Shown: piece by piece, positions 3,632-3,810 of the stretch
Layout: each line of letters opens with the position of its first letter
Numbering within the stretch: the first letter of the stretch is position 1
Origin: Escherichia coli
Lineage (GTDB): Bacteria > Pseudomonadota > Gammaproteobacteria > Enterobacterales > Enterobacteriaceae
NCBI RefSeq assembly: GCF_003334385.1
Contig: NZ_QOWN01000011.1
Direction: 5' to 3' (one strand)
Length of the DNA: 64,000 nt
Position numbers and translations under genes: made by a program
Notes under the pieces: generated by a model
Database searches by the model: none
The model's input: the letters and a program-made list of their open reading frames with translations, nothing else
Told to the model about the DNA's origin: nothing

Positions 3632-3810
3632 TCCCTACTCCACTCCTGCTATGCTTAAGAAATTATTCATAGACTCTAAATAATTCGAGTTGCAGGAAGG
3701 CGGCAAACGAGTGAAGCCCCAGGAGCTTACATAAGTAAGTGACTGGGGTGAACGAATGCAGCCGCAGCACATGCAACTTGAAGTATGACGAGTATAGCAG
3801 GAGTGGCAGC

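Follow-up and report, generated by a model that had tools for sequence, protein, structure and literature searches.

A conserved anti-Shine-Dalgarno hairpin that shares its left arm with the yajO promoter and probably insulates yajO from the dxs operon in Enterobacteriaceae

In the insertion sequences (IS) IS10 and IS50 the 3' arm of a fold-back structure covers the ribosome-binding site of the transposase gene, the gene's own promoter is located between the two arms, and transcripts entering from outside are translationally silent. To our knowledge, such an insulation design has so far been known mainly from insertion sequences. It is said to have been described as fold-back inhibition or 'protection from outside transcription' by Davis, Simons and Kleckner in 1985 and by Schulz and Reznikoff in 1991. 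For the tnpA gene of IS200 a stem-loop within the 5' untranslated region (5' UTR) was described, in which an anti-Shine-Dalgarno sequence (anti-SD) pairs with the Shine-Dalgarno sequence (SD) and limits binding of the 30S subunit (PMC4513863). Here we describe an element at the junction of the chromosomal genes dxs and yajO of Escherichia coli, found in a stretch of 64,000 nucleotides (nt) of contig NZ_QOWN01000011.1 (assembly GCF_003334385.1); this whole stretch is called the window in the following, and all positions refer to it unless they are marked as K-12 coordinates. The element is a conserved hairpin, whose 3' strand is the SD region of yajO and whose 5' strand, composed of CTCCTGC and the outer pairs, is the matching anti-SD, and it probably insulates yajO from the genes upstream.

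The product of dxs is the flux-controlling first enzyme of the methylerythritol phosphate (MEP) pathway of isoprenoid synthesis and also feeds the synthesis of thiamine and pyridoxal. For yajO an alternative route to the same product, 1-deoxy-D-xylulose 5-phosphate (DXP), has been proposed, and the gene is named accordingly at NCBI. RegulonDB, as cited in PMC6131387, lists xseB-ispA-dxs-yajO (b0422-b0419) as one operon as well as yajO (b0419) alone. In the window the dxs stop codon TAA (3629-3631) is followed by TCCCTACT, the left arm CCACTCCTGCTAT, the region between the arms, the right arm ATAGCAGGAGTGG, the tetranucleotide CAGC and the yajO start codon ATG at 3811. A first-pass annotation of the window had reported that the left arm (3640-3652), starting 9 nt after the stop codon, is the exact reverse complement of the right arm (3794-3806), and that the latter holds the AGGAG of the SD (3799-3803) at a spacing of 7 nt to the yajO ATG; the positions are correct, and the coordinates of the repeat were confirmed in the sequence and with a repeat finder. 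The repeat finder extended the pairing to 16 nt at 94% (3640-3655/3791-3806) and detected two more inverted repeats (3670-3694/3772-3796 and 3717-3730/3735-3748) nested within the 141-nt gap between the 13-nt arms. The 13 pairs are made up of ten ancient local pairs (CCACTCCTGC/GCAGGAGTGG) and three inner pairs (TAT/ATA), which use the terminal A of an ERIC/IRU repeat and a TA at 3794-3796. A point change, the end of the ERIC repeat or its target duplication may have supplied the right side of these inner pairs. The perfect 13-mer pointed out in the annotation is present as such, and its perfection is in part a by-product of the ERIC insertion. The annotation had further estimated the probability of a chance match at about 1e-4, which is fair for one region of 170 bp. 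Over the 64-kb window, 0.27 perfect 13-mer inverted repeats are expected (first-order Markov model, arm starts at most 200 nt apart), at least one is found in 20% of random windows, and three such loci are present in the actual window. After a scan of this length the repeat alone is only mildly surprising and no strong evidence of function, and since a 13-mer is not rare by chance over 64 kb, the reality of the element rests on its conservation.

For the comparison, the species genomes of GTDB were scanned once with YajO, and the 80 closest of 525 relatives, all of them Enterobacteriaceae from about 25 named genera, were compared. In each of the 80 species dxs is located directly upstream of yajO and the hairpin is present. 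The dxs-yajO spacer has a length of 54-75 nt in 75 of the species; the spacers of the remaining five are longer and carry an insert. Each spacer follows the pattern ...CTCCTGCTATGCTTAA...(A)GCAGGAG..., and the SD precedes the start codon by 6-8 nt. CTCCTGC is complementary to GCAGGAG, including the (A)GGAG, in 82 of 82 spacers, and in all of them the 3' strand of the hairpin is exactly the SD region, while the sequence of the loop is not conserved across species. The tract between the dxs stop codon and the stem comprises 5-17 nt and is composed of 66% C, 28% T, 4% G and 3% A over the 82 spacers (e.g., TCCCTCCCCTTTTCC); it could serve as a rut-like (Rho utilization) segment or provide spare anti-SD registers.

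Covariation was assessed in an anchored, gap-free alignment of 81 sequences, in which 15 pairs were counted. Standard pairs occupy 85.6% of the cells, compared to 31.7-52.7% when the partner was slid by one to three columns, and the observed covariation score was reached by none of 500 shuffles. Double changes occur at five pairs; the composition of pair 6:47 is CG 45, UA 10 and UG 9, that of pair 8:45 GU 29, GC 27, AU 9 and UA 2. With the unanchored full spacers of 33 species, RNAalifold returned the same 9-bp stem with three compensatory pairs. Relative to the mapped yajO transcription start site (TSS), the covarying outer pairs lie at -22 to -20, within a range of outer positions from -24 to -20, and CTCC lies at -19 to -16, positions which belong to the promoter spacer. 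Since the outer pairs covary where no promoter constraint is expected, they support an RNA structure, whereas the 7-bp core is invariant and as such uninformative on pairing.

A different kind of conservation is found at the inner end of the left arm. TATGCTTAA is invariant, and because its pairing partner is freely variable, this conservation is not explained by pairing and indicates that the left arm carries another signal besides. TGCTATGCT is likewise invariant or nearly so: within the 81 sequences T13, G14, C15, T16, A17, T18, G19 and T21 are invariant and C20 is conserved in at least 90%. The resulting TGcTATGCT has the classic form of an extended -10 element: TG occupies -15/-14, and T, A, T and T are found at -12, -11, -10 and -7, respectively. 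A start near 3662 (K-12 438284) was predicted from this element before the published TSS was found at this very position. SMRT-Cappable-seq, by which 5'-triphosphate ends are captured and full-length transcripts are read, contains the entry 'b0419 438284 reverse same b0419' in supplementary file 4 (PMC6131387). The K-12 map used for the transfer of coordinates was checked with the RefSeq annotation (yajO 437161-438135, dxs 438315-440177), the starts of thiI and xseB, and the sequence string of the Term-seq data. Counted from the TSS, the -10 hexamer ends 7 nt upstream, the anti-SD arm ends 10 nt upstream, and the ERIC repeat begins 8 nt downstream. A consensus scan for promoters and terminators missed the extended -10, as its rule requires a -35 element, and detected no terminator on the plus strand; in the supplements of the Cappable-seq study of 2016 no match to the yajO start coordinates was found. 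An upstream open reading frame (ORF) starting at the ATG within TATGCTT was considered and rejected: the encoded peptides range from 2 to 63 amino acids, fall into all three frames relative to yajO and have no SD.

A second 5' end has to be considered for E. coli. The yajO clone of Adams et al., described as the 'entire 5' UTR', starts at TCCACTCC..., which corresponds to 3639 (bioRxiv 10.1101/2020.07.18.207399). For this end, TGGCATAAT with its hexamer CATAAT is a weak candidate for an extended -10 element. It was rejected as a conserved yajO promoter, since the stop codon and the last codons of dxs vary and GGCATAA(T/C) is found at the dxs end in only about 30 of the 80 species, GGCATAAT in 23; judged from the sequence, TGGCATAAT may represent a second start specific for E. 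coli. A transcript spanning 3639-3811 (about 173 nt) would comprise the hairpin in full, and its end would coincide with the very abundant 3' end at 3811.

In silico, RNA of positions 3625-3830 folds into one long hairpin (-81.2 kcal/mol, z -7.7), whose base stem comprises 17 contiguous pairs in the presence of ERIC. The median stability of the hairpins is -24.8 kcal/mol at 37 C and -21.5 kcal/mol at 45 C; for the window allele with ERIC the values are -78.6 and -66.6 kcal/mol. The accessibility of the SD was calculated as the partition-function unpaired probability of its GGAG. In read-through RNAs the predicted value is below 0.1 in 80 of 82 cases, with a median of 0.0. For RNAs which start at the mapped or predicted TSS the predicted median is 0.54; the insert-free E. 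coli allele reaches 0.68 and the window 0.45. An intrinsic terminator was rejected as well, because no U-tract follows the stem (one to four T within 10 nt in 82 of 82 spacers) and the RNA 3' end at this site is Rho-dependent.

This 3' end is known from published genome-wide data. Term-seq placed it at K-12 438135 with a score of 38352 and a Rho score of 2.89, marked 'Yes', and at K-12 438058, within early yajO, the read-through ratio in the presence of bicyclomycin was 2.98 (bioRxiv 10.1101/2020.07.18.207399). The same study reports that a yajO(5'UTR+ORF)-lacZ fusion increased more than 2-fold in a rhoR66S background and that 3' exonucleases trim RNAs after termination by Rho. The fusion begins at 3639, so that the anti-SD arm is included, and such trimming would be expected to leave an end immediately beyond a very stable stem. 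The transcripts recorded by SMRT-Cappable-seq agree with an end before yajO: b0422|b0421|b0420 transcripts (xseB-ispA-dxs) with two start sites are classified as 'ShorterEnd' in comparison to the RegulonDB operon b0422-b0419, genes were assigned to an operon only if they were fully covered by reads, and xseB-ispA-dxs transcripts appear without coverage of yajO, no full-length dxs-yajO reads being recorded (PMC6131387). Rho-dependent termination in turn implies that the RNA is untranslated.

The region between the arms is occupied by a 127-bp repeat. Its ends, TA(T/G)ACTCTAAAT to GACGAGTATA, were set by alignment with copies at pgk-fbaA, at ybhJ-ybhI and upstream of rtcB, which are more than 90% identical; as the flanks of these copies are unrelated to the arms, it was ruled out that the arms are part of the repeat. 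Repeats of this kind, named ERIC, IRU or RU-1, are reportedly the subject of papers by Sharples and Lloyd in 1990, Hulton in 1991, De Gregorio in 2005 and Wilson and Sharp in 2006. They are 127 bp long with short terminal inverted repeats and TA termini, are co-transcribed with their neighbours and are polymorphic between strains (PMC2229807, PMC10969869). The standard primers ERIC2 and ERIC1R match at 3733-3754 (plus strand) and 3711-3732 (minus strand) with one mismatch each, while 0 matches are expected by chance; a search of literature text returned 100 papers which contain both primer sequences together with 'ERIC2'. TA is present at both termini (3670-3671 and 3795-3796), and the element alone folds at a predicted -56 kcal/mol (z -8.9). 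From these features, 3670-3796 can be regarded as a typical copy of ERIC/IRU, an already known repeat. Of the two arms, the left one lies wholly outside of it, and the right one shares only 3794-3796 with it. Using megablast on complete genomes, copies matching the spacer were detected in all 5,426 E. coli genomes, at a median of six places per genome. At the dxs-yajO site ERIC is present in 2,844 of the 5,426 and absent from about 48%. An Rfam scan of 3300-4200 (E <= 1) yielded no family at its gathering score, only a chance match to Hrs1 and a sub-threshold match to V_AS5 (RF02818, 'Vibrio RNA AS5'), which covers 3669-3792 over the whole model with 52.5 bits against a gathering score of 96; V_AS5 appears to be a relative of ERIC.

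The insert-free allele is exactly 125 bp shorter and reads TAA TCCCTACT CCACTCCTGCTAT GCTTAAGAAATTATTC ATGGCAGGAGTGG CAGC ATG, with 16 nt between the arms. Here the arms form a 42-nt hairpin with a predicted stability of -29.2 kcal/mol (z -3.9). The right arm is ATGGCAGGAGTGG in this allele as well as in the filled allele of strain DC71, which results in one G.U pair in the RNA. Since the stem is present in the insert-free allele, it is older than the ERIC insertion, and ERIC sits in its loop. With regard to the target site, the insert-free E. coli allele reads TTCATGGCAGG without a TA and the filled DC71 allele GAGTATGGCAGG, with a G at position 3796 where the window has an A, so that the junction is ambiguous by 2 nt. 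Two strain variants keep the pairing of the arms through G.U, namely C3641T in CU532-9 (O4:H5) and A3799G in 2014C-3051, the latter changing the SD from AGGAG to GGGAG. Outside of E. coli, the same loop holds a diverged element of the ERIC family (about 70-75% identical to that of E. coli, same orientation) in three relatives, Phytobacter diazotrophicus, P. ursingii and Kosakonia sp. S29, where it adjoins AGCAGGAG immediately on the 5' side; the loop of UBA3516 retains only the two ERIC ends and that of P. massiliensis is empty with TA at the target. The Phytobacter insertion fits a TA target, and the element of Phytobacter and Kosakonia is a second, independent insertion into this loop. E. 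albertii carries the E. coli ERIC insertion with the same flanks and an additional 78-bp insert inside ERIC; one E. coli strain (GPEC606) shows a +78 allele as well, and the site of E. whittamii is empty. This distribution implies that the ERIC insertion is either old or was exchanged between lineages.

Taken together, we propose the following course of events. Both arms are present in transcripts which enter from dxs or begin at 3639, and these would form the hairpin. The SD of yajO would thereby be masked and yajO would stay untranslated; this translational silence we infer from the predicted folding and from the absence of full-length dxs-yajO reads. The naked read-through RNA would then be terminated by Rho early in yajO (around 3888), the masking being the presumed trigger, and 3' exonucleases would trim it back to the base of the hairpin at 3811, which would leave the mRNA of the dxs operon with a protected 3' end. 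The DNA for the anti-SD also carries the extended -10 element, from which transcription would start at 3662, past the anti-SD. The yajO mRNA from this promoter would lack the anti-SD arm, its SD would be free, and this full-length message is presumably the translated species. In this manner yajO expression would be insulated from the xseB-ispA-dxs operon. ERIC, located at +9 of the yajO transcript, would fold onto itself, hold the arms together and lengthen the stem. The first-pass annotation had already suggested that the left arm acts as an anti-SD which uncouples yajO translation from dxs, and this suggestion is supported by the conserved stem, a predicted unpaired probability of the SD of about 0, a yajO start past the anti-SD arm, dxs transcripts that stop before yajO and premature, Rho-dependent termination with its 3' end at the base of the hairpin. 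Of the checks it had proposed, folding of the arm region gave a single long hairpin, the comparison revealed the stem in 80 other species with covarying outer arm pairs, and a yajO-specific promoter inside the spacer exists in the form of the primary TSS downstream of the anti-SD arm. Its alternative of a regulated or thermosensitive switch did not hold, as the hairpin is very stable and neither an alternative conformer nor a ligand element was found in it. Three points had been missed: the left arm also serves as the -10 region from which yajO is transcribed, the sequence between the arms is a mobile repeat polymorphic in E. coli, and this insertion contributes to the perfection of the 13-mer. 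The features of the junction are compiled in Table 1.

Table 1. Positions of the features at the dxs-yajO junction within the window.
Feature	Position	Strand	Basis
dxs coding sequence, stop codon TAA 3629-3631	1769..3631	+	ORF list; RefSeq annotation of identical K-12 sequence
TGGCATAAT, candidate extended -10 element overlapping the dxs stop codon, for a 5' end at 3639	3624..3632	+	hexamer 7 nt upstream; inferred, weak
C/T-rich, G-poor tract from the dxs stop codon to the base of the hairpin	3632..3639	+	base composition across 82 spacers
Left arm (anti-SD) with invariant core CTCCTGC 3643-3649 and outer pairs 3640-3642	3640..3652	+	sequence, repeat finder, comparison
Extended -10 element TGcTATGCT of yajO, overlapping the anti-SD arm	3647..3655	+	near-invariant in 81 sequences; -15 to -7 of the TSS
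Primary TSS of the monocistronic yajO mRNA (K-12 438284, reverse strand)	3662..3662	+	SMRT-Cappable-seq, PMC6131387
[quoted passage not shown]
Right arm with GCAGGAG 3797-3803 including the SD AGGAG 3799-3803; 3794-3796 ERIC end/target duplication	3794..3806	+	
Dominant Term-seq RNA 3' end (K-12 438135), 5 nt past the right arm	3811..3811	+	bioRxiv 10.1101/2020.07.18.207399, supplementary files 1 and 3
yajO coding sequence, start codon ATG 3811	3811..4785	+	ORF frame; RefSeq yajO 437161-438135
Rho termination region in early yajO (K-12 438058)	3888..3888	+	bioRxiv 10.1101/2020.07.18.207399, supplementary file 2

Several observations weigh against this model. The effect of the left arm on yajO translation is a prediction, and for the ERIC-bearing mRNA from the yajO promoter the predicted accessibility of the SD is only 0.45. 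Covariation is confined to three to five outer pairs of related sequences and the invariant core gives no signal; moreover, the core of the left arm overlaps the promoter element (TGC), which offers another cause for part of its conservation. The yajO TSS was mapped in K-12 only, which is a carrier of ERIC, and if the 5' end at 3639 used by Adams et al. were the main TSS, the anti-SD would be part of the yajO mRNA itself. Finally, abundant antisense transcription and double-stranded RNA (dsRNA) processed by RNase III may shape the 3' and 5' ends that are seen at the locus.

An alternative explanation which we consider unlikely, though deserving of attention, is that the hairpin mainly protects or processes the 3' end of the xseB-ispA-dxs mRNA after termination by Rho, with an incidental overlap with the SD and little effect on yajO. 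It would account for the strong 3' end 5 nt past the stem, for dxs transcripts that stop before yajO and for the very high stability of the hairpin. It does not explain why, out of a spacer of 54-75 nt, precisely the SD region provides the 3' strand in every one of the 82 cases, nor why the promoter is placed in such a way that its own transcript loses only the anti-SD arm. Protection of the 3' end is also compatible with insulation of yajO, of which it would be a consequence. Considerably less probable is that the left arm is conserved only as the promoter of yajO and that its complementarity to the SD reflects the coincidence of a purine-rich SD and a pyrimidine-rich promoter-proximal sequence. 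The invariance of TGCTATGCT, a TSS at the expected distance and the conservation of TATGCTTAA in spite of its variable pairing partner agree with this explanation; CTCC and the outer positions, however, are located in the promoter spacer, where constraint on the sequence is not expected, and the outer positions remain complementary to the region 3' of the SD through changes of CG to UA and among AU, GC and UA.

Translational coupling, by which a ribosome ending at the dxs stop codon would melt the hairpin and activate yajO on a polycistronic mRNA, has very little probability. The stem does begin a short way after the stop codon (at 8 nt in E. coli), but by the established footprint of the ribosome the distance of 5-17 nt (median 9.5) corresponds approximately to its leading edge, so that at most the outer pairs and not the 7-bp core would be opened; in addition, no full-length dxs-yajO reads were recorded and the Rho-dependent termination implies an untranslated RNA. 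Hardly more credible is a regulated switch as brought up in the first-pass annotation, either an RNA thermometer or a mask of the SD controlled by a ligand or a small RNA (sRNA). Such switches usually take effect by masking the SD, the locus is situated among genes of cofactor and isoprenoid synthesis, and an antisense RNA has been reported, but the stem is long and remains stable at 45 C with the median of -21.5 kcal/mol (-66.6 kcal/mol with ERIC), which is far too stable for a thermometer, and neither conserved internal mismatches, an anti-anti-SD element, a riboswitch match in Rfam nor a conserved loop was detected. That the repeat is a chance match or a part of the ERIC palindrome without a function of its own, as might be thought from about 0.27 such 13-mers expected per 64 kb, from arms that flank a large palindromic mobile element and from three of 13 pairs using ERIC-end nucleotides, is refuted by the unrelated flanks of other ERIC copies and by the presence of the arms in insert-free alleles and 80 other species, and its probability is next to nil.

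The minus strand of the locus is transcribed, too. Huang et al. ascribe a signal at the locus to an unannotated antisense RNA, and published data place antisense RNA across the spacer and the 3' end of dxs (about 3573-3800), with a p19/RNase III dsRNA cluster (about 3591-3777) and, at 3573 (K-12 438373), a Term-seq 3' end on the antisense strand. A possible source is read-through from the convergent thiL-pgpA operon. The hairpin, the geometry of the internal promoter and ERIC are not mentioned in the passages found in Adams et al. and Huang et al., and the RefSeq K-12 record NZ_CP083410.1 (436500-441700) has no feature for ERIC, the hairpin or a yajO promoter. Inverted repeats elsewhere in the window include a perfect one of 19 bp (TATATACTATAGGGGGGTAT ... 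ATACCCCCCTATAGTATAT) at 59391-59446, where an IS2 transposase gene ends (K-12 ~382,500-382,555), and a perfect 13-bp hairpin (TAATGCCCGTCAA/TTGACGGGCATTA) at 47458-47487, which is followed by TTT and is terminator-like.

On the evidence given here, the dxs-yajO junction seems to be built to prevent co-expression, and the operon annotation at this locus is in need of revision. When the native dxs operon is up-regulated in metabolic engineering, yajO is not expected to follow. The junction would represent a family-wide chromosomal example of an insulation design, in which one short sequence is used as promoter in the DNA and as anti-SD in the RNA. It also offers a cis mechanism for the published Rho-dependent 3' end and a case in which a mobile ERIC entered the loop of a regulatory hairpin, apparently harmlessly and twice independently. 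In a more far-reaching interpretation, to which we give only a small chance, the approximately 16 nt of CTCCTGCTATGCTTAA would act throughout the family as an 'operon insulator' dual-coded for -10 (DNA) and anti-SD (RNA), ERIC would turn the terminated product of read-through or of initiation at 3639 (3639-3811, about 173 nt, with its very abundant 3' end) of K-12-like strains into a discrete structured RNA with a possible role of its own (RNase III substrate, sponge or modulator of dxs mRNA stability), and the approximately 50:50 polymorphism of ERIC would tune the expression of dxs and yajO.

Compared to the described systems, the junction resembles the fold-back inhibition of IS10 and IS50 most closely in its geometry: with the TSS mapped in K-12, the start of yajO (3662) lies between the arms (3652, 3794) and the gene's own mRNA is devoid of the 5' arm. 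By this analogy the yajO element would work like fold-back inhibition without being a member of the IS systems, as yajO is a gene of the aldo-keto reductase family which is syntenic with dxs in 80 species. Unlike the transposase genes of IS10 and IS50, yajO is a chromosomal gene of housekeeping type at an operon junction and no transposase is involved; anti-SD and extended -10 share nucleotides, the silent read-through RNA would be passed on to Rho and become the 3' end of the upstream operon, and the element is conserved across a bacterial family. With IS200 tnpA it has in common a stable stem that pairs an anti-SD with the SD, the masking at yajO being predicted; the IS200 stem, by contrast, belongs to the mRNA of tnpA itself, where its repression is constitutive, whereas the mapped own transcript of yajO is free of the anti-SD (PMC4513863). 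[quoted passage not shown] Like other ERIC/IRU copies, 3670-3796 is an intergenic, co-transcribed and strain-polymorphic imperfect palindrome of 127 bp with TA ends, but unlike the usual copies it occupies the loop of a regulatory hairpin that predates it, between the TSS and the SD.

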